DNA of 64,000 bases from an uncultured delta proteobacterium (GCA_963792965.1 CAWBYW010000011.1:64001-128000); one strand, 5' to 3'. Positions 7,982 through 26,019 are shown, counted from the first letter of the stretch. Program-made: numbers and translations. The notes: generated by a model from the letters alone, not told the origin.

Positions 7982-7995
7982 ACACAGACAAAAAG

Positions 7996-8023
7996 AAACG
8001 GGGTGGAGATATCCACCCTGTCC
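7996..8023 (+). repeat. Hairpin homologous to the terminator at 9864, but without a U-tract
   Basis: AAACGGGGTGGAGATATCCACCCTGTCC here versus AAACGGGGTGGAGAAATCCACCCCGTTTTTT at 9864. Confidence 0.65.
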
Positions 8024-8151
8024 TTTACAGGGTTTCGGACCCATGGAACCGACCCTTATTTCCGCTTATCTCTATCTCCCGTTCAGAGAGCCGGCTTACC
8101 CATGGCGATTTCACGCTCACGTTTATCGTTTGACCTAAAGGGAGGCATCGC

Positions 8152-9846
8152 ATGTCAAAAAGGGAGCAGATCTGGAGGAAATCATGGGACAAGGGGCTGA
8201 CCGATCTTGACCCACAGCTGTTCGAGAAGAGCATCGTCGACGCCGTAAGGCCGTCCTTCGAGCGGCTCCCTAACAGGGCCGCCCTTGCCTACATGGGGAC
8301 CGAGATTTCCTTCCGGGACCTCGACCGCTACGCCAACCGATTCGCGGACATGCTCATCAAGAACGGGCTTAAAAAGGGCGACGTGGTGGGGATCAACCTC
8401 CCCAATATCCCCGCGTATGTCATCGCGTGGCTCGGGATACTCAAGGCCGGGTGCGTCGTCTCCGGCGTCTCGCCCCTTCTCTCGACTGAGGAAATGGAGT
8501 ACCAGCTTTTAGATTCCGATGCAAAGGGGTTGGTCACGCTGGACGCGATCTTCGCCGCCAGGGTAACCAAGATCGCCGACAGGCTGCCAAGACTGAAGGT
8601 CGTCGTGGCAGTGAGCATCGGCGACTTCCTACCATCGGTCAAGCGCGTGCTCGGTAAGCTCCTCAAGAAGTTCCCAACCGGTGAGGTCACGCCCCTTTCA
8701 GGAAAGCAAGTCTACCGGATGGAGGAGGTCGTCAACAACGACGCATTCTCCGAAAAGGATCCCGGCGTAAAGCTCGCACCCGGCGACCTCGCCTACGTTC
8801 AGTATACCGGCGGTACCACCGGGATCCCCAAGGGGGCGATGCTCTCTCACCGCAACATCGTCTCTGACATCCTGTGTGTGTCCAAATGGTTCGGATGGGA
8901 GCCGGGAGCCGGGGTGGCGGTTAACGGGTTTCCATTCTTTCACATTGCCGGGATCTTTGTCAATGCAATTTGTCTCCAACTCGGGCTTACACAACCCTTG
9001 ATCCCAAACCCTCGAAATACCGGCCACATCGCGCAGGAGATCGCCAAGTACCGGCCAAGGCTGATGCTTAACGTGCCCGCCCTCTACCAGCTCCTCATGG
9101 CGGACCCGAAATTCAAGAAGCTCGATCATTCGAGCCTCGAAGTCTGCATATCGGGCGCGTCCCCCTTCCCCGAGGAGTCACAGAAGGAGCTGGAGGCCAT
9201 TGTCGGCAAGGGAAAGCTGATCGAGACCTTCGGGATGTCCGAGACCTCCCCGCTGCTCTTCCTTAATCCCTACAAGGGGAAGAAAAAGCTCGGCTCGATT
9301 GGGCTCCCGCTCCTGAACACCGACGTCAAGCTCGTCGAGCCTGCAACCGGTGCCGAGGTGGGCATCGGGAAGCCGGGAGAGATGTGGGTGAAGGGACCCG
9401 AGGTGATGTCCGGATACTACAAGAAGCCCGAGGAGAATAAGATCGCGTTTGACAAGGACGGCTACTTTCGCACGGGCGACGTCGCGGTCATGGACGACGA
9501 GGGATATCTGAGGGTCGTGGACCGTACCAAGGATATGATCATCGTATCCGGATACAAGGTCTTCTCCGTGAAGGTGGAGGGTGCGCTCACCGAGCATCCG
9601 GCAATCGATATGATCGCCACTGTCGGCGTGCCTAACCCCGAGCGGCCCGGCTCCGAGATCGTCAAGGCGTTCGTACAGCTCAAGCCGGAGTATGCGCAAG
9701 CGGACAAGGAAGCCCTCAAGAAGGACATCACGGCCTTCGCAAAAGAAAAGCTCACGCCCTACGAGGTGCCCAAGGTCATTGAGTTCATGGACGCGCTGCC
9801 GCTCACTCCCGTTGGCAAGCTCGACAAGAAGAAGCTGAGAAAGTAA
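8152..9846 (+). CDS. Acyl-CoA synthetase, paralog 3
   Basis: YTGGTTGIPKG, FGMSET, RTGD, DRTKD motifs. GGGAGG RBS. Confidence 0.93.
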   Translation: MSKREQIWRKSWDKGLTDLDPQLFEKSIVDAVRPSFERLPNRAALAYMGTEISFRDLDRYANRFADMLIKNGLKKGDVVGINLPNIPAYVIAWLGILKAGCVVSGVSPLLSTEEMEYQLLDSDAKGLVTLDAIFAARVTKIADRLPRLKVVVAVSIGDFLPSVKRVLGKLLKKFPTGEVTPLSGKQVYRMEEVVNNDAFSEKDPGVKLAPGDLAYVQYTGGTTGIPKGAMLSHRNIVSDILCVSKWFGWEPGAGVAVNGFPFFHIAGIFVNAICLQLGLTQPLIPNPRNTGHIAQEIAKYRPRLMLNVPALYQLLMADPKFKKLDHSSLEVCISGASPFPEESQKELEAIVGKGKLIETFGMSETSPLLFLNPYKGKKKLGSIGLPLLNTDVKLVEPATGAEVGIGKPGEMWVKGPEVMSGYYKKPEENKIAFDKDGYFRTGDVAVMDDEGYLRVVDRTKDMIIVSGYKVFSVKVEGALTEHPAIDMIATVGVPNPERPGSEIVKAFVQLKPEYAQADKEALKKDITAFAKEKLTPYEVPKVIEFMDALPLTPVGKLDKKKLRK

Positions 9847-9863
9847 TAGAAATATCGGAATGG

Positions 9864-9894
9864 AAACGGGGTGGAGAAATCCACCCCGTTTTTT
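9864..9894 (+). terminator. Rho-independent terminator
   Basis: Perfect stem AAACGGGGTGGA/TCCACCCCGTTT with a GAAA loop and a following T run. Confidence 0.85.
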
Positions 9895-9950
9895 ACTCTT
9901 GTCTGAAAACGCCGGACATAGATCTCAGGGAGCGGAAATTCACCTCTCGC

Positions 9951-10442
9951 CTACCCCGTGGGGTCCTTCTCAGGCTCCGCCTCTCCGGAAATTATATCGA
10001 CAAGCCGGTCGATGAATACCATCTGTCCCTTGAGGAGCTTCTCTCTGGCCGCGGGTATCCCAAACCACGCGGCCCTGTCTACCTCGGGGAACTCCTGCTC
10101 CTTGCCCGATCCGGGCGGCCATTCGAGTACGAAGGTGTTGCTCTTGATCGTGGAAGGGTCGCAGTCTCGCTGGTGCGCCCATACGTGTACTACCTTACCG
10201 CCGGGCTGCTTGACGCTGCCGAGCGGGGTGAATGTCCCGTCGACGTGAACTCCTGTCTCCTCGAAGAACTCGCGCTTTGCCGCGCTCAATGCGTCTTCGT
10301 CCTCCGTGAATTCGCCCTTGGGGATCGACCATGCGCCGTCGTCTTTCTTCGCCCAAAAAGGCCCTCCCGGGTGAACCAGAAACAGCTCGAGGATCGCTCC
10401 GTTGAAGCGAAACAGCAGGATCCCGGCGCTCTGCCTCGGCAT
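9951..10442 (-). CDS. NUDIX hydrolase (HPGGP subfamily)
   Basis: MPRQSAGILLFR start, LVHPGGPFW, WSIPKGE...AAKREFFEETG Nudix box, FPEVDRA. Confidence 0.9.
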   Translation of the reverse strand: MPRQSAGILLFRFNGAILELFLVHPGGPFWAKKDDGAWSIPKGEFTEDEDALSAAKREFFEETGVHVDGTFTPLGSVKQPGGKVVHVWAHQRDCDPSTIKSNTFVLEWPPGSGKEQEFPEVDRAAWFGIPAAREKLLKGQMVFIDRLVDIISGEAEPEKDPTG

Positions 10443-10603
10443 TCTATCTTCTCCCGTGTATTGACTGACGCACAGTGGGAACGGCAAGGTGAGAATCAAA
10501 TCAGAGAGGGAGGTCTCCTCTCGTCTCTCTCCGCACGAGTCGGAAGGCTGGACAGAGCCAAGAGGAGACCTCAAAATAGGGGGTCGTGTCTCATCGATCC
10601 CCT

Positions 10604-11705
10604 CTACTCGAAATACGCCATCTCCACCCCGCGATCGCGCAGCCCCTTCAGGAAGGGCTCCGGGTCCTTGAGGAGACGCTCGGGGGCGTAGACGCCGCCG
10701 GGCAGGTCCTTGAACTTCCCTTTCGTGAGCCACACGGCCGCCTGTAGGCACGGCGCCGAGGTGATGTGCGCGATGTGGCCGACGTAGGTGTAGTGGACCC
10801 GCTTCTCCTTCCCCTTGTGCGTTCCCCACACCTCGACATACCCCACGGATTTGTCCGGCGCGCTGTCGCTCTGGAACAGCGGGAGGATCGGCTTGACGAC
10901 GGCAAAGAGGCGCCGCCGGCGTACGTCGGTCTGGGTGAGGCGCAGCGCCGCCAGGAAGCGGACGGTCATGACGTCGAAGACCGGCCTTACCCCGCCGTGG
11001 ACGCTGACGTATTTCAGACCCTTGAGGTTTTTCGGCAGGCTCACCGACTCGGCGTGGCCGGTGTAAAAAACGGGGAGCCTCCCGATAGGCGGCGGAAAGT
11101 CAACGATCTTCTTGCCCTTGCCGCACGGGACATATTGTTCGTGCCCGTCGCGCCACTGGAGCGTCTTCCCCGATAGGAGGTGAAACAGGTGCAGGATGTT
11201 GGCAGGCCCCACCGGCTCGTTTGACCCGGCCGCCCAGTTGACCGATATCCCCTCGGGGGCGTCCATCGTCAGGTAACCCTTCTTCGACAGGATCTGGGTG
11301 AGGCCCGGGGAGTTGCCGAAGCCGCTGAGTATCTTGACGCCCTTCTTCTTCGCCCTTCCGTCGAGCTTCTCGACGGCAAGGTAGGCGTCGTAATCGTCGG
11401 CGATCGAGATGTAGTCTACGCCGGCGTCGATGGCGGCGTCGGCCACGGGCGCCTCGAACCGGTAGAAAGGGCCGACGTAGCTGATAACGACGTCGTTTCC
11501 CTTCATAAGCTTCACCAGACCCTCACGGTCCGTGACGTCGGCTTTAGCGGCCGAGAACTTCTTGCCGTGGGCCGCCGCCTTTCTCTTTTGCCTTTTGCTC
11601 GTCGAGGTCGGCAACGACGACCGACGTGACGTCGGCATCCTTTTCCATCAACTCGAGCATGGTCGCGGCCATGTCCCCAGCACCGCCCAAGAACAGAATT
11701 TTCAC
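10604..11705 (-). CDS. Saccharopine dehydrogenase-like NAD(P)-binding oxidoreductase; frameshift near 11585
   Basis: GTG start after AGGAGG gives MKILFLGGAGDMA (Rossmann fold). The downstream frame carries VGPFYRF, GVDYISIADD, GFGNSPGL and GVYAPE. Confidence 0.8.
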
Positions 11706-12154: not shown

Positions 12155-12340
12155 GGTCGTTCCCTCCTGTGTGAATTCCGATATTAAAATAATACGCCGT
12201 TTTTGTGGCGGGGTCAATGAAGCAAGATAGGGGAGACGAAAAAAGGGGGAAGCGGCTGAAATCGGCAAGGACTCGGGTTGCATATTCCAGCGTCCCGTGC
12301 TATACAGAAATGAACAGATTTTTCATTCATGAGGTGTGCC

Positions 12341-14025
12341 ATGAATCGCAAGAGGTTTATAGCGTTAGTTCCCTTGCTGCTCGTCGTTGCATTCTTCGCG
12401 GCGTCCTGTGCAATCATCACGCCCGTACCGGTCGGGGCAAAGCACCTGGCCATCGTCGATACGTCCGACATCCACAGCTTCGTGCTCCCCTATGAGGCGA
12501 CCGTTATCAAGGACGACGGTACCCAGGTGAAAATGCTCATCGGCGGGATGGACCATATCGCCGCCGTCGCAAAGCGGGAACGGGAAGTAACAGACGGGAC
12601 GCTTCTGGTCGCCTCCGGCGACATTCTCATGGGTAATTTCTACCGGATATTCGGCGGCGTTCCCGAGATCACCTCCATGAACCTGTCCGGCTACGACGTG
12701 GTGACGCCCGGCAACCACGACTTCGACTTCGGGGTCGACTTCTACAAAAAGGCCATGAAGAACGCCGCGTTTCCCATAGTCTGCTCGAACATTACTTTTG
12801 AGGACAAGGAGCTTTCCTCCCGAGTGGTCCCCTACATCATTAAGGAGGTTGGAGGGATAAAAGTCGGCATCTTCGGGCTCATGACGCCGGACCTTGTCCG
12901 GGTGTCGTCCGTGGGACCGACCGTCACCGTCGATCCCGACCTGACGTCGGTCTCGATCGAGATGGTCAGGACGCTCAGGGAGAAGGGCGCCGATATCGTC
13001 GTCGCGCTTACCCACACGGGCAAGCTCCTGGACGAAGACCTCGCGCGGGAGGTCGCGGGCATAGACATCATTGTCGGTGGCCACAGCCATGACACCTTTT
13101 ACGAGAAGATCAAGGGCCCCAACGGCTGGAAGACGGTCATCGTCCAGGCGGGGGTATACGGCAGGGAGGCGGGGGTCCTCTCGTTTGACGTCGCCGGCGG
13201 ACGGGTGACCAGGTCCCGCTGGGAGTTGGTTCTCATGGATGCGGAGGCGGGCAGTGATCCGACCGTGGCCGCGTACCTGTCACCCTATAAAGCCAAGATG
13301 GAGGAGAGCCTGAAACGGCCCGTCGGCGAGACGCTTGTGGACCTCGACGCCATGTCCGCCGACGTTCGATCGAAGGAAAACAACCTCGGCGATCTCGTCG
13401 CTGATGCGTGGGCGGACCGGTTCGCAAGAAAGGGCAACCACATCCCATCGTCCTGATCAACGGGGGCGCGATCCGAGGCGACACGACCTTCAAGAAGGGG
13501 CCCATAACCTACGGGGACCTTCTAACGATCCATTCCATCGCCAATACGATCTATGAGGTCAGCCTCACGGGCAAGACCCTCCTTTCCGTGCTCGAGATGA
13601 GCGCATCGGCAATCCGCGTTGCGGGCGACGGCTGCCTCGAGGGGGAGCGTGTCCCCACGGGCGGTTTTCTGCAGGTGAGCGGCCTCAGGATGGTGATCAA
13701 TTCGGTGGGTCGGCCGTTCTGCGCCGAGTTCGAGGGGAAAGACCTGAAGCAGATCATCTTCCCGGGAGAGCGGCTCGTCCGGGCCGAGGTCATGGAGAAC
13801 GGGAAGTGGGTGCCGGTCAGGGGAGACAGGACCTATACGGTCCTGGTCACCTCATGGACCGCGGGGGGTGGCGATGGGTACTTTCCCTTCATGACCGCCA
13901 AGAAAAAGGACACGAAGGTAGATATCGTCGATGTCCTGTCCGCGTACATCAAAAAGAGGAGTCCCGTCAACCCGGTGACGGACGGGAGGATCGTGATCGA
14001 GGGGATGCCCGGAGGGGAGAAATAG
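12341..14025 (+). CDS. Bifunctional metallophosphatase/5'-nucleotidase lipoprotein; frameshift near 13430
   Basis: Lipobox FAASC, then SDIHS, SGD, PGNHDFDFG, LTHTG and GGHSHD. The C-terminal domain (INGGAIRGD, FLQVSG, GGDGY) is in ORF 13408..14025. Confidence 0.88.
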
Positions 14026-14038
14026 GACTCGATAAGGG

Positions 14039-14073
14039 GAAAAAAGAAGGCCGGGACGATTTCGTCCCGGCCT
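14039..14073 (-). terminator. Rho-independent terminator between convergent genes
   Basis: Stem AGGCCGGGACGA/TCGTCCCGGCCT, followed on the minus strand by TCTTTTTT. Confidence 0.75.
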
Positions 14074-14215
14074 CTCCGTTTAGTCTCGCTTCATTCGTTG
14101 TGCAACCGGCATTCAGGGATATCTTACCATCCCATACGCATCGCAGTCAGCCGTTCGTGCTCGGTTTAATATTTACTGTGCCGCATGTCCCGATCGAAAG
14201 GCATACGAAAAGGAG

Positions 14216-14506
14216 TCACCGTGACAGCAGCTCTTTTACCTCCTGTTTCCCTTCGTCGAGCTCTCTTTGTTGCTCCTTATCCGATTCCAAGAGGAGGGTA
14301 AGAAATTCGCCGACGTGCTCCTTTTCTTCCTTGGCGACGTCAAGGAGGACGCGCCTGATCCGCTTGTCGCCCGAAAGCGCCGCCATCTGCTCGTAGAGGT
14401 TTATCGCGTCAAGCTCGGCGATAATCCCGGCTCGGAGGATCTCGTTATCGATATCCTCTCTCTTTATTTTTTCCAGATCAATAGGTACCTTGGATAGCAT
14501 CTTCAC
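14216..14506 (-). CDS. Small ferritin-like protein, encapsulin-associated ferritin (EncFtn/Flp) type
   Basis: ILRAGIIAELDAINLYEQMA and EEKEHVGEF two-helix di-iron motifs, 96 aa. Confidence 0.8.
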   Translation of the reverse strand: MKMLSKVPIDLEKIKREDIDNEILRAGIIAELDAINLYEQMAALSGDKRIRRVLLDVAKEEKEHVGEFLTLLLESDKEQQRELDEGKQEVKELLSR

Positions 14507-14576
14507 CCCCGATATGAAATTGTGTATATAAGAAAAGATACGTTACAGGCGGCGTGCGCGTCGGCACAGGGTCATC

Positions 14577-16244
14577 TCAGGTCGATTCCCATTTCTTCAA
14601 TATCTCCATCACCTCCTGCGGTGTCTCGGCGGTCCTGAGGAGATCGACAAGGTAGCGCTGCCGTGCGGCGCCGCTGGCCACGCTCAGGACCCTCACCTGC
14701 AAGTCCGGCATGTGGGCCGGGGTCAGGATCAGGAAAATGAGCTCGATCGGCTTTTCGACCTCGACCCCTTCCACCCCCCACTGGGCGATCCCGAGGGCGA
14801 GGACGGCACGGTCAAGCCCGCTCAGCCGCACGTGGGGGAAGGCGGTACCCTCGTTGAAGAAGGTCGACCCCTGTTGCTCCCGGACGAGAAGTGCATCGAG
14901 CACGTTCTTCCATTCTTCCTTTAGTCCGGCATCTTCGCATGATTTCTTGACCAGCTCGCGCAATGCGTCGTCCTTCTTTACGGGCTTTTTCCAGATGACG
15001 ATCCGCCCGGTCGTCAAGAGGGCGCTGAGCGACGTCCCCGTATCTCTTTGTTCGGGGACGAGTGGCGGCTTCTTGCTGAAGATGCTCAACACTCTTTTCG
15101 TCCCGGACGGCAGATTCTCGTCGTGAGTATCAAGCACGATGATCGTGATGTCCTGAGCATTTTGGATGAGCCTTCCCACGACGGACTCTTTTCCCATGAG
15201 CCTCTCATAGAAGGGGAGTACGGTGGGTGTGCCCACAACAATATGTCCCACCCGATACTCCCTGGCGAACTGGAGGATCGTCCCGGAGATATCGGTACCT
15301 TTGAAGGTGAAAACGATCGCCCCAAGCTGCTTTGCCAGCGTGAGTGTATCGGAGAGCACTCGCTGAGTATGGGCGTCAATCGCGGTCGGTTCCTCATGCG
15401 GGGCCTGGACGTAGAGGGCATACCAGTTGCGGTTGAGTCTTCCCGCCAGGCGCGACGCGTAGCGGAGGAGCTTCTCACTCTTGGGGCTTCGAGAGCTCAG
15501 GCATACCATGACCTGATCCGGCGCGGCGGGCGCCTCCTCCTCGAAGGGCTCGCGCTGTCTAATGTCGATCTGGGAGGCAAGCTCCCTGAGGGTCAGCTCT
15601 CTGAGCTGGTCGAGGTTGGGCCGAGTAAAGAAGTTTTCAGAGGCCGTCTGGATTCGATCCTTCGGATAGATTTTCCCCTCCCTCAGACGCTTGATCAAAT
15701 CTTCCGCGGTCAGGTCGATATTGACAATCTGGTCGGCTTCGGCAAGTACGGTGTCGGGGATTCGCTCGCGCACCTTCACGCCCACGAGCCGCTCGACAGT
15801 ATCGTAGAGGCTTTCGATATGCTGGACGTTGAGGGTGCTGACGACATGGATCCCGGAGGCGAGGATGTCCTGAACATCCTGATATCGTTTCGTGTTTCTG
15901 CTCCCCGGAACGTTGGTATGGGCAATCTCGTCGATGAGCGCAATCTCGGGCTTCCGCGCGATGACTGCGTCACAGTCCATCTCCTCGACTCTTATTCCCC
16001 GGTATTCTATGGCGCGCCGTGGAACTACCTCCAGTCCTTCGACGAGCCGGGCCGTTTCCGGCCGCCCATGGCTTTCCACGAGGCCCACGACCACGTCCAG
16101 CCCCTCCTTGAGGAGCTGGTGGCCTTCCTGGAGCATCTGGTACGTCTTTCCCACCCCGGCGCAGTAGCCCAGATAGATCTTGAGCCTTCCGCGCTGCGAG
16201 CGCCTGATCATCCGCAGGAAATTATCCGCTCTGCTTTCAAACAT
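14577..16244 (-). CDS. kdpD: Soluble KdpD N-terminal domain + Usp domain + PTS EIIA (Ntr/Fru-type) fusion, without transmembrane or kinase domains
   Basis: GRLKIYLGYCAGVGKTYQML, DEIAHTN and TLNVQHIESL (KdpD). VMVCLSS...HIVVG (Usp). REQQGSTFFNEGTAFPH (EIIA with the phospho-His). Confidence 0.85.
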   Translation of the reverse strand: MFESRADNFLRMIRRSQRGRLKIYLGYCAGVGKTYQMLQEGHQLLKEGLDVVVGLVESHGRPETARLVEGLEVVPRRAIEYRGIRVEEMDCDAVIARKPEIALIDEIAHTNVPGSRNTKRYQDVQDILASGIHVVSTLNVQHIESLYDTVERLVGVKVRERIPDTVLAEADQIVNIDLTAEDLIKRLREGKIYPKDRIQTASENFFTRPNLDQLRELTLRELASQIDIRQREPFEEEAPAAPDQVMVCLSSRSPKSEKLLRYASRLAGRLNRNWYALYVQAPHEEPTAIDAHTQRVLSDTLTLAKQLGAIVFTFKGTDISGTILQFAREYRVGHIVVGTPTVLPFYERLMGKESVVGRLIQNAQDITIIVLDTHDENLPSGTKRVLSIFSKKPPLVPEQRDTGTSLSALLTTGRIVIWKKPVKKDDALRELVKKSCEDAGLKEEWKNVLDALLVREQQGSTFFNEGTAFPHVRLSGLDRAVLALGIAQWGVEGVEVEKPIELIFLILTPAHMPDLQVRVLSVASGAARQRYLVDLLRTAETPQEVMEILKKWEST

Positions 16245-16250
16245 ATTTCT

Positions 16251-16826
16251 TTAGTTAAGCTCGTCAAGAGCCAGATTGAGTTTTACGATATTGACGCGCG
16301 GCCGTCCGAGTATCCAAAGGCCGCGACCTTCGATATGGGCCGTGATCATCTCACGGACGAAGAGCTCGGTGAGCCCGCGCGCCTTGGCGACCCTCTTTGC
16401 CTGAAGCAGGGCGTTTTCGACGCTGATATGCGGATCAAGGCCGCTGCCCGAGGCGGTGACGGCATCGACAGGTATCGGACTGTCGGGGGCGAGTCCGTTT
16501 TCCTGCCGGTAGAGTGACGCGCGCTCGCCGATCGAATCGATGAGTTTTTTCGACAACGGGCCGAGATTACTTCCCCCCGAGCCGGATGGGTTATACTCCA
16601 CGGCGGAGGGGCGGGGATGGAAGTAGTTCTCTCCCTTAAAAGGCTGGGCGAGCAACTCGCTGGCGATGGTCTTACCTCCAGCGGTAATCAACGATCCCTC
16701 CGCCTTGGCGGGGAACAAGACGTGGGCAACCCCCCACACGACGAGCGGGTAGACCCCACACGTCACTACAGCGATAATGGCCGTGATGATACAGGCCCTC
16801 TTAATCTCCACAAGCAGGCTCTTCAT
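16251..16826 (-). CDS. kdpC: K+-transporting ATPase subunit C
   Basis: YFHPRPSA, SGGSNLGP, DAVTASGSGLDPHIS, VNIVKLNLALD. Confidence 0.97.
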   Translation of the reverse strand: MKSLLVEIKRACIITAIIAVVTCGVYPLVVWGVAHVLFPAKAEGSLITAGGKTIASELLAQPFKGENYFHPRPSAVEYNPSGSGGSNLGPLSKKLIDSIGERASLYRQENGLAPDSPIPVDAVTASGSGLDPHISVENALLQAKRVAKARGLTELFVREMITAHIEGRGLWILGRPRVNIVKLNLALDELN

Positions 16827-16841
16827 TGCCGTCTTTCTCCC

Positions 16842-18863
16842 TTACAGATGAGAAAGAAAAGTGATACAGAGATCGATCAACTTGATCCCCACGAATGGGG
16901 CGACGATGCCGCCCATTCCGTATATGAGAAGGTTGCGCCGGAGGAGACTCTCGGCGCTCAACGGCCGAAACCTAACCCCTTTGAGCGCGAGGGGTATCAG
17001 GGCGACGATGATCAGGGCGTTGAAGATGACCGCGCTCAGCACAGCGCTTTGAGGCGAGGTGAGACCCATGATGTTAAAAGGGGCGATCACCGGGAACGAT
17101 CCGACGAGCATTGCCGGGATGATGGCGAAATATTTTGCCACGTCGTTGGCGACCGAAAAAGTAGTCAGCGCCCCGCGCGTCATCAACATCTGTTTGCCGG
17201 TCTCGATAATCTCGATGAGCTTGGTCGGGTTTGAATCGAGGTCCACCATGTTCCCCGCTTCCTTGGCGGCCTGCGTGCCCGTATTCATGGCAACACCCAC
17301 GTCGGCCTGGGCCAAGGCGGGCGCATCGTTGGTGCCGTCTCCGGTCATGGCGACGAGATGCCCGACGCCCTGCTCGTTGCGGATAAGAGAGAGCTTATCC
17401 TCGGGCCTTGCCTCCGCAAGAAATTCATCCACGCCCGATTCTTTCGCGATGGCCTGTGCGGTAAGCCGGTTGTCTCCGGTAATCATTACGGTCTTTATCC
17501 CCATGGCGCGAAGGCGCATGAACCGGTCGCTGATTCCCCCCTTGACGATGTCCTTGAGGTGAATGACGCCGAGGCATTCATTGTTTCGTGCCACGACGAG
17601 GGGTGTCCCGCCGGAGCCGGCGATTGCGGCCACGCACCGCTCGGTCTCGGGAGGGAAGTCGGCGCCAATAAAAGTGCGAACAGCGTCGGCCGCTCCCTTT
17701 CGGATGATTTCCCCGCCCATGTCCACACCGCTCATCCTGGTCTGCGCCGAGAACCCGATGAAAACGGCGCCCGGCAGCTCCGCGATCGATCTGCCCCTGA
17801 GGCCGTATTGCTTGGCCAAAACGACAATGCTCCTCCCCTCGGGCGTTTCGTCGGCCAGGGAGGCAAGCTGCGCCGCCTCCGCGAGCCGTTCAATGGAGAC
17901 ACCCGGGGCCGGAGTGAGCTCGACGGCCTGCCGGTTGCCGAGCGTGATGGTCCCGGTTTTGTCCAGGAGCAATACGTCCACATCTCCTGCCGCCTCCACC
18001 GCTCGTCCGCTCATGGCCAACACGTTTTTTTGGAATAACCGGTCTATGCCGGCGATCCCGATCGCCGAGAGGAGCCCGCCGATCGTGGTGGGAATGAGGC
18101 AGACGAGGAGCGACACGAGGATCGTCACCGAGAGTGGAACGGCCAGATAGACCCCGAAGAATTTCAGCGTGATCACCGCGATCAAAAATATTATCGTCAG
18201 GGCCGCAAGGAGGATCGTCAGGGCGATTTCGTTGGGAGTCTTCTGGCGCTGGGCGGCCTCGACCAGGAGAATCATCCGATCCAGGAAGCTCTCCCCGGGG
18301 TTTGACGTCACGCTAACCTTAATCATGTCCGACAGCACCCGTGTCCCCCCGGTGACGGCGCTCCTATCCCCGCCCGCCTCCCGGATGACCGGGGCCGATT
18401 CCCCCGTAATCGCGGATTCGTCGACCGTTGCGGCACCCTCGATGACGTCGCCGTCGGCCGGGATGATCCCGCCCGCGGAAACGATCACGAGGTCGCCCTT
18501 CCGTAGCTTCTCGGCGGGGATCTCCTCGGTGGCGCCGTCGGACCGCACACAGGTCGCCGTCGTTCTCGATCGTGTTTTTCTCAGCGCGCTGGCCTGCGCC
18601 TTTCCTCGGCCCTCGGCCATCGCCTCGGCGAAGTTGGCAAAGAGCACCGTAAACCAGAGCCAGAGCGCAATCTGGAGTACGAACGAAAATGACTCCCTAC
18701 CGCCGGGGATAAAGAGACCGATGGTGACGATCAGCGCGCCTATCTCGGTGACGAACATGACCGGGTTTTTCGCCATGTGCCGGGGGTTGAGCTTGGCGAC
18801 GGCATCGACGGTCGCCCGCCCCAGAATCGCCCGGTCGAAGATGGAGAACTCAATCTTGGCCAC
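16842..18863 (-). CDS. kdpB: K+-transporting ATPase subunit B (P-type ATPase)
   Basis: [36 protein letters not shown]. Confidence 0.98.
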
Positions 18864-18875
18864 TGCCCCAATCCT

Positions 18876-20599
18876 CTAAAAGAGTATAGTGGAGAACTTC
18901 ATCAAAAAGTGCTCAAGTATCGGTCCCAGAGAGAGCGCCGGCAGGAACGTGAGGGCGCCGACTATCAGCACCACGCCCGTCAGGAGACAGACAAAGGTGA
19001 TGCCCCAGACGGGGAAACTACCGCTGCTGGGTGGGATCAGCCGCTTCTTCGCGAGATTTCCCGCAAGCGCCAGGACCGGAATAATAAACAGAATCCGCCC
19101 GGAGAGCATGGCAAGCCCGAGGGTGATGTTATACCAGGGGGTATCGCCGTTGATACCGGCAAAGGCGCTCCCGTTGTTTCCCGTGCACGAGGAAAAGGCG
19201 TAGAGTATCTCCGAAAAGCCGTGGGGGCCGGCATTACTCACGCCGCTCTTGCCCCAGTCGGTTACGACGGCCCATGCGGAAAACCCAAGTATCGACAACG
19301 TCAGGATCAGAATCGCGATAACGGCGGCCTTGACGTCGTAGGCCTCGATCTTTTTGCCGAGATATTCGGGTGTCCGGCCGACCATCAGGCCGGCGAGGAA
19401 CACGGTCAGGACGACGAAGACGAGCATCCCGTAAAGCCCCGAGCCCACGCCGCCGAAAATCACTTCGCCCAGCTCAATGTTGAGCAGCGGGACGAGGCCG
19501 CCGAGGGGAGTGAAGGAATCGTGCATGGCATTAACCGCGCCGCAGGAAGCGTCCGTCGTGACGGTCGCAAACAGGGCGGAATCGAAGATCCCGAACCTGA
19601 CCTCTTTCCCCTCCATGTTTCCGCCCGCGGGATCGACCCCTAAGGCGGTGATGCGTGGGTTGCCGGCGGACTCCGCCCACCAGCAGATGGAGAGGCCCAA
19701 CAGGAACAGGATCAGCATGGACTTCCAGACGGCCCATCCGTGTCTCTTGCTATTTACCATAAGACCGAAATAGTAGGTCAGGCCGCTCGGTATGAGGAAA
19801 ATGGCCAACATCATGACGAAATTCGACAGGGGGGTCGGGTTTTCGAGGGGGTGGGCGGCATTGGCGTTCATGAACCCCCCGCCGTTGGTGCCGAGCATCT
19901 TGATGGCGTCCTGAGACGCGAGCGGGCCCTCGGCGATTGCGTAGGTCGTTGACGGGTCCCCAACGGCCGTTATCTTAATATATGAGCTGAAATTCTGAAT
20001 CACCCCCTGGGAGACGAGAAAAACGGCCAGGATGAGCGAGAGGGGGAGCAACAGGAACAGGGTGCTCCGCACGAGATCGATCCAGAAGTTGCCGATCATC
20101 TGTGTGGTCTGACGGCTTATGCCCCTGGCCAGCGCGGCGGCAACCCCGAGACCTACCGCCGCCGACGTGAAATTATGGAGGACCAGCCCCACCATCTGGG
20201 AAAAATAGGAGAGGGTCGATTCCCCGGAATAGTTCTGCCAATTCGTATTGGTCGTGAAGCTCGCTGCGGTGTTGAAGGCAAGGCCCGGCTCAACCGGACC
20301 AAACCCCTCGGGGTTCAGGGGCAGAATATGCTGAAGGCGGAGGATCGCGTAGGTAAACAAAAGGGATACGAGGCTGAAGGCGATCAGCGAAAAGGCGTAC
20401 TGCTTCCAGTCCTGTTCCTTTCCGGGATCTATCCCCACCACCCGATAAATCGCCCGCTCGATGGGTCCGCAAAAGAAAATCGAGGAACGTCTTCGCCCGA
20501 CGGATCCAGGACACGTCGGAGATAGGCTCCCATCGGTTTGGTGAGGACAATAAGCAGGATCACAAAGAGCGCCAGCTCGCACAAACTATAGATATCCAT
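18876..20599 (-). CDS. kdpA: K+-transporting ATPase subunit A; frameshift near 20490
   Basis: The N-terminus MDIYSLCELALFVILL is in a second frame. The main frame has FTTNTNWQNYSGE, LGTNGGGF, FGGVGSG and NNGSAFAG. Confidence 0.96.
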
Positions 20600-20615
20600 G
20601 CCTGTCTCCCTGCCC

Positions 20616-20699
20616 TTAGAATCGCTCGGGGCGCGCGATGACGAAAAGTAAGAAGATGATGAGCCCGACCCCGATGATGCCGACAATCGTGTCAAACAT
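20616..20699 (-). CDS. kdpF: K+-transporting ATPase subunit F (27 aa)
   Basis: MFDTIVGIIGVGLIIFLLFVIARPERF: hydrophobic peptide with the KdpF C-terminal PERF motif, directly upstream of kdpA. Confidence 0.9.
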   Translation of the reverse strand: MFDTIVGIIGVGLIIFLLFVIARPERF

Positions 20700-20702
20700 G
20701 AT

Positions 20703-20786
20703 CTATAACCTCTCGAACATGCGAATGAATAGTACGCAGAAAGAGAAGAAAAGAAGGATCAGGCAGATATAGATAATATCGATCAT
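20703..20786 (-). CDS. Second small membrane peptide upstream of kdpF (27 aa)
   Basis: MIDIIYICLILLFFSFCVLFIRMFERL, preceded by a purine-rich AAGGGGGA. It is in frame with the kinase ORF in this assembly. Confidence 0.6.
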   Translation of the reverse strand: MIDIIYICLILLFFSFCVLFIRMFERL

Positions 20787-22630
20787 TCGGCGTGAGTCCC
20801 CCTTTTTGCTGTCCGCGCGTCTGAGGCTGAAGGTAAAGGCGCTTCCCCGGCCCGGCCGGCTTTTCGCCTCGATCGTACCTCCGTGGGCCTCGACGATCTC
20901 CTTTGCGATATAGAGGCCGAGACCGGCGCCCTTCGTCTTTTCCTTCCCCCCCGACGCGGTGAAAAACTGGTCGAAGACATGGACCAGTGACTCGGGGGTG
21001 ATCCCTGTCCCTGTATCGGAAACCGTGATGTAGACAAAGCTTTCATCCGACCTTGCCGAAATTGTGACGGTCCCGCCGGCGGGCGTAAACTTGAGGGCGT
21101 TTGACAGGAGGTTATTGAGCACGTGCCTGATTTGCGGAAGATCGGCAAAGGCGTCGGGCAGGTCCTCGGGGAGCTCGGTCTGGACAAGAACGCCGGAGTC
21201 AACTGCGGCCGTGCGAAATTCTTCGGCAGATTCCATGACGACGTCTCGGGGAGAGACCGCCGTGAATTCCATCTGCACCCTCCCCGACTGAATTCTGCCA
21301 ACGTTCAGGAGGTCCTCGATGATGTTATTGAGGCGGTCGCTGTCTTCCCGGGCGGCGATGATGAGCTCTTCCTGTTTCGGCGTGAGGGGCCCGATTTTTT
21401 CGTCCAGCAACAGGTGAATCGCCATGCGTATGGAGGTCAGAGGAGTCTTCAGCTGGTGGGACACGGTGGAGATCACTCCCCGTTTCATCTCGTCGTTGTA
21501 GCGGAGCTTCGTAACATCCTCGATGATGAAGATCGCGCCGGTCATTTCGTTATCAAGGGTCGTGATCGGGAACGCGCCCGGGGACGATAATAGCGTTCCT
21601 CGTTGTTCACGAAGTGCTGAATGACCGCCCGATCCTCGGGCAGGTCCACGGCCCGTCCCTGCTTTGTCACCTCTTCAAAGAGATCGATCAGCCAGGGGAA
21701 GTGGAGATCGCGTATGGAGACGTTCGGCCTGAGTCCGAAGGTCTCCTGCGCCACAATGGTTGACAGCTCCACGATGCCCTGAGGGTTCAGGATGCACACC
21801 GCCTCGGTGAGGTTGTTGAAGGCCTCCTGGACGCTGCGCTGTGTGCGCATCAGCTTTGCCCGATTGGTCCGCCGGAATTCACGGAGGCCCACGGCCATGC
21901 TGTTAAAGGCGTCGGAGAGACGCCCGATCTCGTCTCTCGAATCGCTCTTGACGACGAGATCGAGGTTGCCCCTGCGGATCTCGTCGGTAACGGCGATGAG
22001 CTGATTGATCGGCTGGAGGATCCATTTTCGGGTGAAGAAAATGAGCAGACAGGCGACCAACGCGCCGACGAAGAGATATGTGTACATTTGCTGCTCGGCC
22101 TCTTCGGCCCGATGCTGCGCCAGCGTCTTTTCGTAGATCATGTTCTCCTGGTTCATCTTTATGATTTCGTCGGCAGACTCGTTGATCTCCTTAAAGATCG
22201 GGGAGAGCTCCCTGAAATAGACGTTGCGTCTCTCATTTGCCGAAATCCGCGAATCGCCGACGATTTTCAGGGTCGTCATATATCGCTCGAAGAGCTGTTC
22301 GACCTCGCCCACCTTTTCGCCCTCGCCGGGGATGGTGATGTTGCCCTTTTCGGCAGAAAGCTCCTCGCGGAAAAGGGCGATGCTGTTGTCGATCTCAATG
22401 TCCCCCTCGTGTCTATATCCCAACAACGTCAGGAGGACACCGCTGTCGATTCGCTCGAGGGCCTTTTTCATCTGCTGGCACGCGGTCACGCTGCGATAGT
22501 TTTCCTTCAGAATGACGTCGATCCCCTTTCCAAGCTCGTCAATCTGCTGCACACTCTTAAGGCCGATGGCAACCATGATCAGCAAGAGGCCGATGAACCC
22601 GAGCGATAATTTACGGCGAAGTCCAAACAT
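20783..22630 (-). CDS. Membrane sensor histidine kinase (TM, periplasmic four-helix bundle, TM, HAMP, PAS-like, HisKA, HATPase), KinB-like; frameshift near 21560 and probably near 20800
   Basis: Two TM segments, LKENYRSV, DEIGRLSDAFNSM (HAMP), H-box SHQLKTPLTS, NLLSNALKFT, DTGTGI, GAGLGL. Confidence 0.88.
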
Positions 22631-22665
22631 GAATCGCAGATCCTTATCCGGTTACCGTTCCTGTC

Positions 22666-22681
22666 AGCAAGATGCGTACCA
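22666..22681 (-). promoter_or_regulatory. Sigma54 (-24/-12) promoter of the kinase-kdpFABC-kdpD transcript
   Basis: Minus strand TGGTACGCATCTTGCT, i.e. GG-N10-GC, matching the TGGCACG-N4-TTGCW consensus, 35 bp upstream of the kinase start. Confidence 0.8.
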
Positions 22682-22732
22682 GACTCCCCATACAAGAATT
22701 CCAATGACTTGCCGACGGCAACGCTCGGCGGA

Positions 22733-22779
22733 ATTGCATTTTGCAATATATGGAGGCCATATTTCCGTGCACTTTGCGC
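22733..22779. promoter_or_regulatory. Putative enhancer (activator-binding) sites
   Basis: Palindrome ATTGCATTTTGCAAT (22733-22747) and a related GTGCACTTTGCGC (22767-22779), 50-100 bp upstream of the sigma54 box. Confidence 0.55.
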
Positions 22780-22818
22780 GAAACGCCGTTTCTTAGACGG
22801 ATGATCTTGTGCGTCGTG

Positions 22819-24177
22819 TCAGATATCATAGCGCTTTCGGCGGCGCCAGAGGGTCGCCTGATCCACGCCGAGGATATCGGCCGCTTCGCGGAGTGTTTTT
22901 GTCGTTTCGAGTATGCGGCGGATGTGGAGCTCACTCATCCGCTGAAGCGTGACTGGATCACCGACTGCGGGGAGCGATCGGTCTATGGGCGATGAGGTAG
23001 GGAGATACCGGGCGCCGACCAACTCGGACGTGCAGAGGATAGAGGCCCGTTCGATGACGTTTCTGAGCTCGCGGACGTTCCCGGGCCATGGGTGAGACCG
23101 TAAGGCCTCGAGGGCCTCATCTGTGAATCCCTTGAACAGGCGGTGGTTGCTTCTTCCGAAGAACTCTAAGAAATTCCCGGCAAGCGCCACGATGTCTTCC
23201 GTTCTCTTGCGAAGAGGAGGTATCTCAATCTGGATTACGTTGAGGCGATAGTAGAGATCATCTCTGAACAGGCCTTCCTGGACCGCCCTCTCGAGATCGA
23301 TGTTCGTGGCGGATATGAAGCGGACGTCGGATTTGAACGTCATCTGGTCTCCCACCCTCTCGTACTCACGATCCTGCATGACGCGCAGGAGCTTCGGCTG
23401 GATGGACGGGGGGAGATCTCCGATCTCATCGAGGAAGAGGGTCCCCCCCTCGCACGCGGCTATCCGCCCGCGCCTTTCGCTGACCGCACCGGTAAAGGCC
23501 CCTTTTACATGTCCGAAGAGCTCGCTCTGGAGGAGCTCGGGTGAGAGGGCGGGACACGAAATAGTCCCGAGGGGCTTATCTGCGCGTCTGCTCCACGAAT
23601 GTATGGAGCGCGCAAGCAAGCCTTTCCCCGTCCCGCTTTCACCGAGAAGGAGTATGCTCGCGTCGGATACGGCCACCTTTCGTGCCATGGCTATCGCGCC
23701 CCGCATGGCGGAATTCGTGCTGGAAAAGTCGACGGCGGGATTGAATTTATCGAGGTCTTCGGTGAGCTCTTCCACGCGGCGCTCCAGGCAGCGGATTTCA
23801 GAGATCTTTCTGATGACAATATTCAGCTGGGCCGGCGTGAAGGGCTTAGGGATATAATCGTCGGCCCCCCGACGCATCGCCTCGACGGCGGAGTCGATGG
23901 AAGCATACGCGGTAATGACGATGATCTTGAGCCACGGACACTTCGTGTGGAACAGCGGGATGAGATCCAGGCCATCGGTGGTGCCGAGCCGGAGGTCCAC
24001 AAAGGCGAGATCGAAATAGCCTCTCGAGACCTCGGCCACGGCGTCGTCGAAACTGCCGACGGCAACAACGGAGTGTCCCTCGGTTTCAAGGCAGAGGGAC
24101 ATGGTCCTGCGGATATTGGCCTCGTCATCAATGATAAGGATCTTGAGAGATGTTGGTGGGCTCTGGTTATCGGTCAT
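22819..24177 (-). CDS. Sigma54-dependent response regulator (REC-AAA+-HTH), AlgB-like
   Basis: IIDDE, FVDLRLG, GESGTGKG, SELFGHVKGAFTGA, LFLDEIG, WPGNVRELRN, C-terminal HTH ending ATLWRRRKRY. Confidence 0.93.
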   Translation of the reverse strand: MTDNQSPPTSLKILIIDDEANIRRTMSLCLETEGHSVVAVGSFDDAVAEVSRGYFDLAFVDLRLGTTDGLDLIPLFHTKCPWLKIIVITAYASIDSAVEAMRRGADDYIPKPFTPAQLNIVIRKISEIRCLERRVEELTEDLDKFNPAVDFSSTNSAMRGAIAMARKVAVSDASILLLGESGTGKGLLARSIHSWSRRADKPLGTISCPALSPELLQSELFGHVKGAFTGAVSERRGRIAACEGGTLFLDEIGDLPPSIQPKLLRVMQDREYERVGDQMTFKSDVRFISATNIDLERAVQEGLFRDDLYYRLNVIQIEIPPLRKRTEDIVALAGNFLEFFGRSNHRLFKGFTDEALEALRSHPWPGNVRELRNVIERASILCTSELVGARYLPTSSPIDRSLPAVGDPVTLQRMSELHIRRILETTKTLREAADILGVDQATLWRRRKRYDI

Positions 24178-24763
24178 TTTTCTATTATTGGGTATAATAG
24201 AATTTCATCGTGAGTTATCGACGATGCGGCTTGGCTCCCATGAGATCATTGTGCCGAAGTCCCTCGGGACTATTTGCTGTTTATTCGATATCTGTTGCCA
24301 ACTATTATGATAGCACACATTGAGGAGGGTCAATGCAAAAATAGAAAAGCGCGAAGAGTCGTGAGCGCGATCTATTATGGAGACCCGTCGAAATATTCTT
24401 CCCGCATCCGGCGTATGGCATGTTTCATCGAAGACCCGGGTGTCAGGCGGGAGAATGAGTTACTAACTATATAGGATTTGGGATGAAATGGGTGCCGCAG
24501 CCAAAAAAGGTGAAGAGGATCGGCTCGGAATAGGGAGATGACCTCTGAGACGAGAACTCGTATATGGTATGCATGCGGGGCCGAGCTCAGGCTAATTTTG
24601 ACACCTAATGATTCCCGGCAGTATGCCGAAATGTTCGAATCCCTCGGCCTACGCGATATTCCCCGATATGGTATTGGCCACCTTGTGGGGCTACCTTCTG
24701 CACGTCCAGGGACGGCGAGCGGCTTACGACCGGGCACTGCTGCCCGCCATGCCAACGTTACGG

Positions 24764-25895
24764 TTACACCAAGACGTCCTCCACCGGCCGACGGAGAGAG
24801 TGGGCATAAACTCGGAATAGCCGAACCGGGCCAACAGCTGGGGCCGGGACGAGCCGAGGCTTAGATGGCTCTCTGGAGCTGGGGCACGAGGCTGCCAATC
24901 TCCGCCGGCTGGTTAAGGAATGCCGACTTAACCGTGAGAGCCGTCGAGATGAGCGCATACCGCTCCCAGGTACGGCCGACGGCGACCCACGCCCTCTTGT
25001 CATTTTTCTCCGACACGAACAGGATCATCCCCGAGGAGCTCAGGGCCATCTTCTGGTCCTTGTCCCCCTGGCTCTTGCCTCCGGCAAAGAAATCCATCAG
25101 GATATTTCCGAGCCATTGCGGCACCACGGGATTTCCGCCCGCGCGGGACGAAAGGCCGTCGCGCGTCTTCAACGCCTCTTTATCGCTGAATCGAATCCAC
25201 GACTTGAGCTCCTTGACGAAGGCCTTGTCGTTCATCTGGATGTTGTCGCCTTCCTTCACGATCTCGATCAGTTTTTCGATCTCTTTTCGATCGGTAAAGA
25301 TCATCGTGCCGACCCCCGCCTCTTTTTGAAGTGCTTCAATCTTCTTCATATCTTCAGAGGGAAGGGGCCGTCCGTTGTATTCATTTCGGGTGCACTGACG
25401 GACGGGAATTGCCCTGAAAAGGGTCTCGTTGGGTCTTGCGGACGATGCCTTCAGTCGAATGACAATAGATTCCTCGTCGGCCGTGGGAAAATAGTCTATC
25501 TCGGGGTCAAATCCCGCGTATCGAGCGGAGACAACAAGGTTTTCCAGCGCGCAGCCGAGGCTGATGAAGAGCTCGCGATCATCGGGGTCGACGGCCGGAA
25601 GCCGCCGTGAATAGTCGGGGAAGATGCGGACGATGTTTCCATTGATGGAAAACTTCCACGGCTGGGTATTGTGACCGCTGGGTGCGAGGATCGTATAACG
25701 GATCAGCTCCCGCGACTGCACCGAGATCGTCGGCTCCTTCGTAAACGGCACGGCCCTGATCGCGGTTGCCTCATCTACGTAGTCGGCCGAAGAGCAGGAA
25801 ACCAGGGCGGGTGAGAGTGCCGTGGTCGCCCCGACCACCGCCAAAAGCTCAAGGAACTCTCTTCTGCCCAGATTCCCGGTCGTTCCCTTTCTCAT
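24764..25895 (-). CDS. Tat-exported Acg-family FMN-binding nitroreductase-like protein; frameshifts near 24870 and 24800
   Basis: RREFL twin-arginine signal with LVSC lipobox, LAPSGHNTQPW, SLGCALENL. The typical end (PQLLARFGY...SLRRPVEDVLV) lies in shifted frames. Confidence 0.8.
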
Positions 25896-25942
25896 CGGAA
25901 ACCTCCTTTACATCTGCACCAGATATCAAACAATATTTTCGT

Positions 25943-25971
25943 ATGGTAACAGCAGACGGACAAAGAGTCAA
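25943..25971 (-). promoter_or_regulatory. Putative sigma70 promoter
   Basis: Minus strand TTGACT-17 bp-TACCAT upstream of the nitroreductase-like gene. Confidence 0.5.
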
Positions 25972-26019
25972 GCCCAAGGTGACCGCCTTGGATTCACGAG
26001 CCCGTAAGGTACACGCTGC

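Follow-up and report, generated by a model that had tools for sequence, protein, structure and literature searches.

A kdp locus under predicted sigma-54 control with an EIIA-fused soluble KdpD and a probable potassium-linked sensor kinase in an uncultured delta proteobacterium

Organization of the locus and its genome context

The window analysed here is a 64,000-nucleotide stretch of DNA from an uncultured delta proteobacterium (GCA_963792965.1, CAWBYW010000011.1:64001-128000). It contains a kdp locus in which the genes of the potassium pump KdpFABC are preceded by a sigma-54-dependent regulator and a membrane histidine kinase, and followed by a soluble KdpD. The whole block is co-oriented on the minus strand, from 24177 to 14577, and its open reading frames (ORFs) were named with Pfam and NCBIfam. 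The first gene (22819-24177; PF00072, PF00158, PF25601) encodes a 452-aa response regulator comprising receiver, AAA+ and helix-turn-helix (HTH) domains, with the GAFTGA motif of sigma-54 regulators intact. A 188-nt spacer separates its end from the start of the kinase gene at 22630. The kinase is read in two different frames in this assembly. The N-terminal frame (21542-22630; Pfam 4HB_MCP_1 and HAMP) encodes a first transmembrane (TM) helix, a periplasmic four-helix sensor, a second TM helix, HAMP and the start of a PAS domain, and the C-terminal frame (20783-21545) carries the Pfam domains HisKA, with its phospho-accepting histidine at 21458-21456, and HATPase.

Two short peptides lie between the kinase and the pump genes. 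The first (20703-20786) is a hydrophobic 27-aa peptide, and similar peptides occupy the same place in most of the relatives listed. It usually overlaps the kinase stop codon and could be an extra small pump subunit. The second, also of 27 aa (20616-20699), ends in RPERF, has counterparts in nearly all relatives listed, and is presumably KdpF, judging from its position and a KdpF motif. They are followed by kdpA (18876-20599; PF03814 and TIGR00680 over cut-off), whose 5′-end is spread over three frames, by kdpB, encoding a P-type ATPase with its TGES motif kept (16842-18863; TIGR01497), and by kdpC (16251-16826; PF02669, TIGR00681). The last gene encodes a KdpD of 555 aa with three Pfam domains: the KdpD N-terminal domain, an atypical serine kinase domain (residues 17-226; 15567-16244; PF02702, with a fold match to 2r8r), Usp (residues 244-361; 15162-15515; PF00582), and a type 2 EIIA domain of the phosphotransferase system (PTS; residues 410-551; 14577-15017; PF00359 over cut-off) whose phospho-acceptor His471 is at 14834-14832. 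All the parts reported in the initial annotation of this DNA (activator, enhancers, -24/-12 box, HAMP kinase, two peptides, kdpABC and soluble KdpD) are thus located in the block; the EIIA domain on the KdpD C-terminus was absent from that description.

The source genome (G000), at 88.85% completeness, contains a single kdpABC and a single KdpD. At that completeness kdpE was not found: of the three OmpR-type regulators, two score best as CusR-like and one as PhoB-like. A canonical pair of membrane KdpD, with DHp and CA domains, and OmpR-type KdpE was likewise not found, in agreement with the earlier statement that an OmpR-type kdpE is missing. The genome does contain rpoN followed by ptsN, as well as mannose-type PTS genes, HPr and EI, with EI and its neighbours named from translations. 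The rpoN operon (G000:C7:42100-50400; L081) holds hpf, ptsN, a short HprK-like gene, rapZ, mannose-type EIIA-D, HPr and EI. A diadenylate cyclase is present. There is one strong TrkA_N match, and no match to TrkH or Kup was found in this 89% complete genome.

Conservation of the locus and its sigma-54 promoter

The relatives of the locus comprise the best 80 of 287 matches, ranked by likeness to the full KdpD fusion and hence biased towards it. Groups named in the titles of these relatives are, among others, deltaproteobacteria, Syntrophales, Aminicenantes, Planctomycetota and Hydrogenedentota. The EIIA domain is present in 79/80, and kdp genes are found in the locus in 79/80. Among the 59 loci with the kinase H-box in view, the histidine is kept in 58 and the regulator, at 55% identity or more, in 48, so that the two-component pair is linked to kdp in relatives as it is in the window. 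Loss of the kinase histidine wherever the regulator is missing was considered and ruled out, being seen in only one of 11 such loci. At the protein level, PF02702 and PF00359 occur together in 120/120 homologues listed. The distribution is patchy. In an even phylum sample, KdpD scores over cut-off in 21/151 genomes, and in none of the five genomes from the same family; of 20 KdpD regions from other genomes of the sample, five are of the fusion type and the rest are mostly canonical or split KdpD/KdpE. Four loci (L023, L031, L051 and L055) hold both systems, that is, the kinase with KdpD-EIIA plus kdpABC followed by a second, membrane-type KdpD.

The spacer upstream of the kinase contains the predicted control elements. 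A putative activator site, the palindrome TTGCA-N3-TGCAA, is found at 22734-22746, and a degenerate distal site matching 7/10 consensus positions lies 33 bp upstream of it (22767-22779). A predicted sigma-54 -24/-12 promoter box (22666-22681) is situated 51 nt before the kinase start. Across 59 regions upstream of the kinase, the window included, the box is found in 37 (shuffle mean 0.17) and the palindrome in 24 (shuffle mean 0.26; 100 shuffles, maximum 2). Neither motif occurs in the control regions (0/41 before the regulator, 0/79 before kdpD). Where relatives have secondary enhancer sites, the commonest spacing is 32-33 bp to either side, and a six-row alignment of relatives shows the enhancer pair, with no conservation of the other short spacer palindromes. 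These conserved motifs, together with rpoN in the genome and the failure to find kdpE, support sigma-54 control in place of KdpDE. They also place the kinase gene beneath its own promoter, with the regulator gene outside the transcript, as the proposal of positive feedback had assumed. In some relatives (L030, L032, L039, L040, L048, L054), genes are inserted between regulator and kinase under this promoter; they encode a conserved secreted protein (about 170-240 aa), and the one that was scanned gave no Pfam match. A beta-barrel porin gene is inserted under the promoter at L044:2081-3358.

Relation to described regulatory systems

The locus had been put forward as a candidate for an undescribed system, which does not hold for its basic wiring. 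In Desulfovibrio vulgaris Hildenborough, the sigma-54 regulator DVU3334 binds the kdp promoter and targets its own kdp operon, with the KdpD+Usp protein (DVU3336) and the kinase (DVU3335) encoded by separate genes (Rajeev 2011; PMC3333781). A DVU3334-type site before the kinase gene was noted in Syntrophobacter fumaroxidans in the same work, and a DVU3334-type regulon is listed by Kazakov 2015 (PMC4641369). Sigma-54 wiring of kdp is therefore already known. The window shares with DVU3334-DVU3339.1 and Sfum_2622/2621 a REC-AAA-HTH regulator with GAFTGA linked to kdpFABC, a separate kinase and a soluble KdpD+Usp, as well as a predicted sigma-54 box and a near-identical palindrome (11/13 bases of the DVU3334 site in Rajeev Tables S7/S9). 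The placement of the site ahead of the kinase gene is also that of S. fumaroxidans, and the KdpD proteins of the two loci share their Usp motif. The locus very probably belongs to the DVU3334-type sigma-54 Kdp regulon and works like it, as judged from gene content and motifs. Two differences are apparent. Judging by locus numbers, the D. vulgaris kinase and regulator come after kdpD, and both published KdpDs are without an EIIA domain. Furthermore, the K+ sensor is taken to be DVU3336, as half of a split kinase (Rajeev 2011), whereas the evidence presented below points to the kinase's own sensor; a more remote version of this kinase sensor is found at loci arranged as in D. vulgaris (L214-L216).

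Compared with canonical KdpD/KdpE, the output, KdpFABC, and the N-terminal KdpD-Usp module are the same, but KdpD has no TM, GAF or DHp domains, there is no KdpE, and the promoter is of the sigma-54 rather than the sigma-70 type. The initial annotation likened the regulator and kinase to Pseudomonas AlgB/KinB. In P. aeruginosa this pair controls alginate and virulence genes. The resemblance stands for the layout, a TM-helical sensor-TM-HAMP-PAS-HisKA-HATPase kinase with a sigma-54 partner, and many kinase relatives are labelled KinB by JGI. It is less evident for the sensor itself: Pfam KinB_sensor (PF16767) has no match over cut-off in the genome, and sub-threshold matches occur in 1/41 family members and 2/16 distant ones (best E 1.1e-4). 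By fold, the KinB sensor 4llc appears at rank 28 of the Foldseek matches with 17% identity, below other helical sensors, and KinB is outside the 50 rows listed by a wide fold search, which by itself does not speak against the likeness; other four-helix sensors fit better. Searches of plasmid sequences returned no AlgB or KinB record. The likeness to KinB is thus weakly supported, and the locus is not classed as KinB/AlgB.

A kinase sensor family beside potassium transport genes

The periplasmic sensor of the kinase is modelled as a four-helix bundle with a predicted local distance difference test score (pLDDT) of 88.6. Its closest solved folds are PcaY, LytS and HK9, and sequence searches of the PDB returned no relative of the domain. 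A first sensor profile matched in 15/151 phylum genomes, and K+ transport genes adjoin the match in 14 of these, namely kdp in seven, Kup in three, TrkH in three and a TrkA-domain gene in one. The profile was rebuilt with distant members and searched against 401 genomes, of which 68 matched at 80 places; the 64 new places gave 60 regions. With K+ gene queries fixed beforehand, a K+ gene is found within 6 kb of the sensor in 47/60 regions (33 kdp, 13 trk/ktr, 1 kup), amounting to 44/52 of the stronger matches and 3/8 of the weakest. Around 20 unrelated 4HB_MCP_1 sensors used as a control (20 of 45 matches, one per genome), K+ genes occur in 0/20. Of ten regions from two other phyla, seven have kdp and two have trk genes; the remaining one is a contig of 3.3 kb. 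In a quick tree of 49 rows, K+-linked kinases fall into at least five separate supported clades, and all fusion loci into one. The family is large, with 2162 clusters at E up to 1e-10. In the best 150 of these, N44, S47, E59, R60, D62, N97, T99, E103, Y138 and N160 are each kept in more than 90%.

KdpD itself was searched for in ten genomes whose sensor partners are other than kdp (trk, ktr, kup). Nine of the ten have no match over cut-off, and two of these nine are single-contig genomes of 99% completeness. The full cassette of regulator (55-58% identical), palindrome, -24/-12 box and kinase is found before trk genes at L179, L193 and L197; two of these three loci are in genomes without a KdpD match, one of which is a single contig of 99% completeness. 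In the other non-kdp loci scanned, one or both promoter motifs are mostly missing. Because the kinase family and the cassette adjoin other K+ genes in KdpD-less genomes, the kinase appears not to need KdpD as its input, and the presence of the same cassette before Trk and Kup genes argues that the signal enters via the kinase's own sensor. The neighbourhoods of the sensor family show a K+-related role, which is distinct from K+ binding itself. The main new finding is this genomic evidence for the family as a K+-linked sensor that is independent of KdpD and recurs with transporters unrelated to one another. The kinase probably reads the K+ signal itself.

Several further arrangements occur within the family. 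Kinase-less sensor genes encoding 253-254 aa abut the start of trkH in five loci (L155:7539-9736, L186:113-2310, L194:282-2479, L195:8236-10433, L201:7711-8813), where the product may be a direct sensor subunit of the Trk/Ktr channel. In one clade, a receiver protein, TPR-bearing where scanned, follows the kinase and could provide a second output (L118, L152, L153, L165, L173, L179, L183, L188, L191-L193, L199). An APC-family permease also recurs beside the cassette (L056:698-2554, L154:13691-15664, L168, L173, L174, L177, L183) and may be a KimA-like K+ importer.

The soluble KdpD-Usp-EIIA protein

The N-terminal domain of KdpD has been described as a serine kinase that phosphorylates KdpB at S162 and stops the pump, this residue being the serine of the KdpB TGES motif and the inhibitory site in E. 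coli (Silberberg 2024; PMC11018627). According to the same source, short KdpD/Usp forms carry out only this phosphorylation, and KdpD kinases act across species. In the window KdpD, the Walker A motif (G-x5-GKT), the Walker B motif (DE) and Arg186 are all present, and they are invariant in 80/80 relatives. Tyr35 lies at the position of E. coli Trp39, an equivalence by motif position, and is aromatic in 80/80 relatives and Tyr in 72/80; the adenine-binding pair (W39/R190 in E. coli) is therefore matched by Tyr35/Arg186. The target is retained as well, with TGES found in 62/71 relative segments and no match to the search pattern in the other nine. The protein had been called a kinase-less KdpD, a description that cannot be kept in view of these motifs. 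It resembles the published short KdpD/Usp serine kinases in its Walker motifs and arginine, its Usp domain, its lack of a histidine kinase, its place at the end of the kdp operon and the TGES of its KdpB. It differs in its extra C-terminal EIIA domain, in the Tyr for E. coli Trp39 and in the Usp of its relatives, which is without the S. aureus c-di-AMP motif.

The best PDB matches of the EIIA domain, by sequence and by fold, are EIIA-Ntr proteins. Its phospho-accepting histidine is kept in 77/80 relatives, the exceptions being two truncated proteins and one frameshifted or changed. The domain is 27% identical to the genome's own PtsN and scores 42.8 bits against the PtsN equivalog TIGR01419 (cut-off 138.7), and is accordingly PtsN-like rather than PtsN. 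A structure model of the full KdpD is weak (predicted template modelling score, pTM, 0.35) and was used per domain only. Taken together, the protein looks like the serine kinase that serves as the pump off-switch, fused to a PtsN-like domain. PtsN (EIIA-Ntr) is known to regulate KdpD in E. coli, Pseudomonas putida and rhizobia, the last of which keep ptsN2 in a kdpDE cluster (PMC8534201, PMC13104625), and reviews describe its binding to the DHp domain of E. coli KdpD. The window likewise ties a PtsN-like domain with a phospho-histidine to Kdp; unlike in those systems, the domain is fused to a KdpD N-terminal half without DHp, and the only DHp in the locus is on an unrelated kinase. The main text of Silberberg 2024 (PMC11018627) does not mention PTS or EIIA, and no KdpD-EIIA architecture is found among the table rows examined from it. 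By title and start of abstract, and with subscription journals mostly uncovered, no publication describing a KdpD-EIIA fusion or the K+-linked sensor family was found. The fusion is apparently an unpublished variant.

Proposed control of the locus and competing explanations

The locus is best explained by two layers of control, consisting of a K+-responsive, portable two-component cassette and a PTS-gated kinase that inhibits the pump, and we place the probability of this reading at roughly two in three. It is supported because promoter and enhancers are conserved, rpoN, ptsN, HPr and EI are present, the serine-kinase motifs are intact and the sensor family lies beside K+ genes. In the first layer, the membrane kinase would read a K+-linked signal through its periplasmic four-helix sensor and phosphorylate the sigma-54 activator, which would bind the two enhancer sites 33 bp apart and open the -24/-12 promoter. 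One transcript would then cover the kinase, the two peptides, kdpABC and kdpD, and induction would yield more sensor, since the kinase gene is within the transcript and the activator gene outside it. In the second layer, EIIA, probably phosphorylated by the genome's EI and HPr, may gate pump inhibition, or the kinase, by carbon or energy state. The direction of every switch in this scheme, like K+ sensing without KdpD and the role of EIIA, is one that we infer.

A number of observations weigh against this explanation. Thirteen of the 60 sensor regions have no K+ gene, although five are on contigs or at edges too short to judge and five belong to the weakest-scoring group. Related genomes do not count as independent observations, and several of the 60 regions coincide with loci already in the 80-relative set, so that a Fisher value overstates the linkage. 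A Parabacteroides kinase with the same sensor motifs and a sigma-54 partner has no K+ transporter among its 18 annotated neighbours, and in a Bacteroides record the sensor profile does not match the kinase that follows kdpD. The palindrome alone does not single out the cognate regulator, because similar sites are given for an activator of another family (Rajeev 2011, Table S9), which is DVU3305 to judge from the species in question. KdpD-EIIA stays, usually with the kinase, in 11/80 loci that have a pump of another clade, a pattern suggestive of some tie between the two. Finally, the kinase and kdpA are both frameshifted in the window assembly.

If two-layer control is correct, the cassette would be a candidate transcriptional switch for kdp in many anaerobes that have only short KdpD; Silberberg 2024 (PMC11018627) leaves unanswered what drives kdp transcription in species that have no riboswitch and no KdpD other than the short form. 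With its small size (about 150 aa) and a set of named invariant residues, the soluble sensor domain lends itself to a K+-binding test, and direct binding would make it a second, independent bacterial K+ receptor. The KdpD-EIIA protein would naturally unite, in one chain, partners whose interaction is known from proteobacteria, which makes PTS control of pump inhibition testable. A bolder version, for which we would put the odds somewhat below even, is that the four-helix bundle represents a previously undescribed family of sensors for external K+. These would have no relation to KdpD, would serve Kdp, Trk/Ktr and Kup operons in several phyla and would also occur in kinase-less form directly before trkH. 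The family could be distantly related to P. aeruginosa KinB, in which case the KinB ligand might be a cation, and in the window's clade it would be paired with a serine kinase that has its own PTS phospho-switch, so that carbon state would directly set pump activity.

A competing explanation, which we regard as clearly less than evenly probable, is that the kinase binds no K+ at all and senses a correlate such as membrane potential, turgor or Na+, or the activity of a partner transporter, with K+ genes as its usual targets. The closest solved folds named above bind organic ligands or partner proteins, the kinase-less sensor genes abutting trkH suggest contact between sensor and transporter, and the Parabacteroides counter-example lies beside mscL. 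Against this, Kdp, Trk/Ktr and Kup are unrelated to one another, and a shared ligand is a simpler explanation than a shared protein contact. Moreover, most of the invariant residues (N44, S47, E59, D62, N97, T99, E103 and N160) are small polar or acidic ones that would suit a cation site.

The initial annotation proposed a three-component circuit in which soluble KdpD modulates the kinase. In its present form, KdpD-Usp-EIIA would bind and modulate the membrane kinase, most simply by EIIA docking on the DHp helices, and we consider this rather unlikely as the account of the locus. Free PtsN binds the DHp of E. coli KdpD, and the only DHp available here is that of the membrane kinase. Apart from the loci with swapped pumps mentioned above, several rearranged loci have KdpD-EIIA immediately after the kinase, all fusion loci fall within one kinase clade, and intact Walker-less KdpD-Usp genes directly precede the kinase in two Kup loci. 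Over 40 loci, distances of KdpD correlate with those of the kinase at 0.64-0.71 and with those of KdpB at 0.27; when the swapped-pump loci are removed (33 left) the gap narrows to 0.65-0.72 versus 0.53-0.61 (KdpB/KdpA). However, in nine of the ten genomes tested the kinase family adjoins K+ genes with no KdpD match over cut-off, KdpD kinases work across species and need not travel with their pump, and the two Walker-less cases come from a single genus. The idea is not supported for KdpD as a required K+ input, which is incompatible with two-layer control, and keeps some genomic support for a modulating contact between KdpD-EIIA and the kinase, which is plausible from gene arrangement and can be accommodated within two-layer control. 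The Walker-less KdpD-Usp-like genes (L157, about 9400-10700, minus strand; L158, about 7500-8880, plus strand) are possible pseudokinases. Loss of Walker A and B where the kinase serves Kup is as expected if these motifs serve KdpB.

The Usp domain bears on a further alternative, that short KdpD is switched by cyclic di-AMP (c-di-AMP) through Usp with EIIA secondary, as the short KdpD of Deinococcus geothermalis is stimulated by c-di-AMP (Silberberg 2024; PMC11018627). We judge this unlikely. The genome has its diadenylate cyclase, and the window Usp itself has S-x-S-x20 spacing and a fold matching the c-di-AMP-bound KdpD Usp 7ji4. On the other hand, the S. aureus-type motif SxS-x20-FTAxY is not present in full: WYALY replaces FTAxY, and the second Ser is Gly in 79/80 relatives. 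The domain instead carries the E. coli-type, non-binding signature RxxxR-x8-WxA[V/L]Y (motif definition after Moscoso 2015), of which R261, R265, W274 and Y278 are invariant in 106 homologues. In addition, an Rfam scan of 13000-26000 found no c-di-AMP riboswitch and no other Rfam family.

Frameshifts and neighbouring genes

Frame breaks affect the kinase, which is split near 21590-21545 and whose end is fused with the first peptide near 20790, and kdpA, at its 5′-end near 20520-20470. A kinase naturally encoded by two genes is ruled out, as it is a single ORF of about 610-660 aa in 48/58 relatives. By a rough count, frame splits affect about 10 of the 97 gene bins of the genome that could be compared with relatives, some housekeeping genes among them. 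With the kinase intact in most loci and such splits found genome-wide, assembly indels are the likelier cause of the split, and the frameshifts in kinase and kdpA are probably assembly errors rather than real. That both are real and the locus is decaying in this genome is improbable: two genes are broken, and a close relative (L002) lacks the kinase histidine, the regulator and the promoter motifs, but comparable splits occur across the genome, the catalytic and promoter motifs of the window are all intact, and Kdp may be the main K+ importer where neither TrkH nor Kup was found.

In that relative, Asp replaces the phospho-accepting histidine of the kinase (L002:3630-5465), and neither a regulator nor promoter motifs precede the gene; kdpABC and KdpD-EIIA are intact. 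Elsewhere in the window, a sugar-symporter-like gene (27473-26109, minus strand) and a nucleotidase-like gene (12329-14025, plus strand) are broken over several frames, consistent with assembly indels. Directly downstream of kdpD lies an encapsulin-cargo-like ferritin gene (14506-14216, minus strand).

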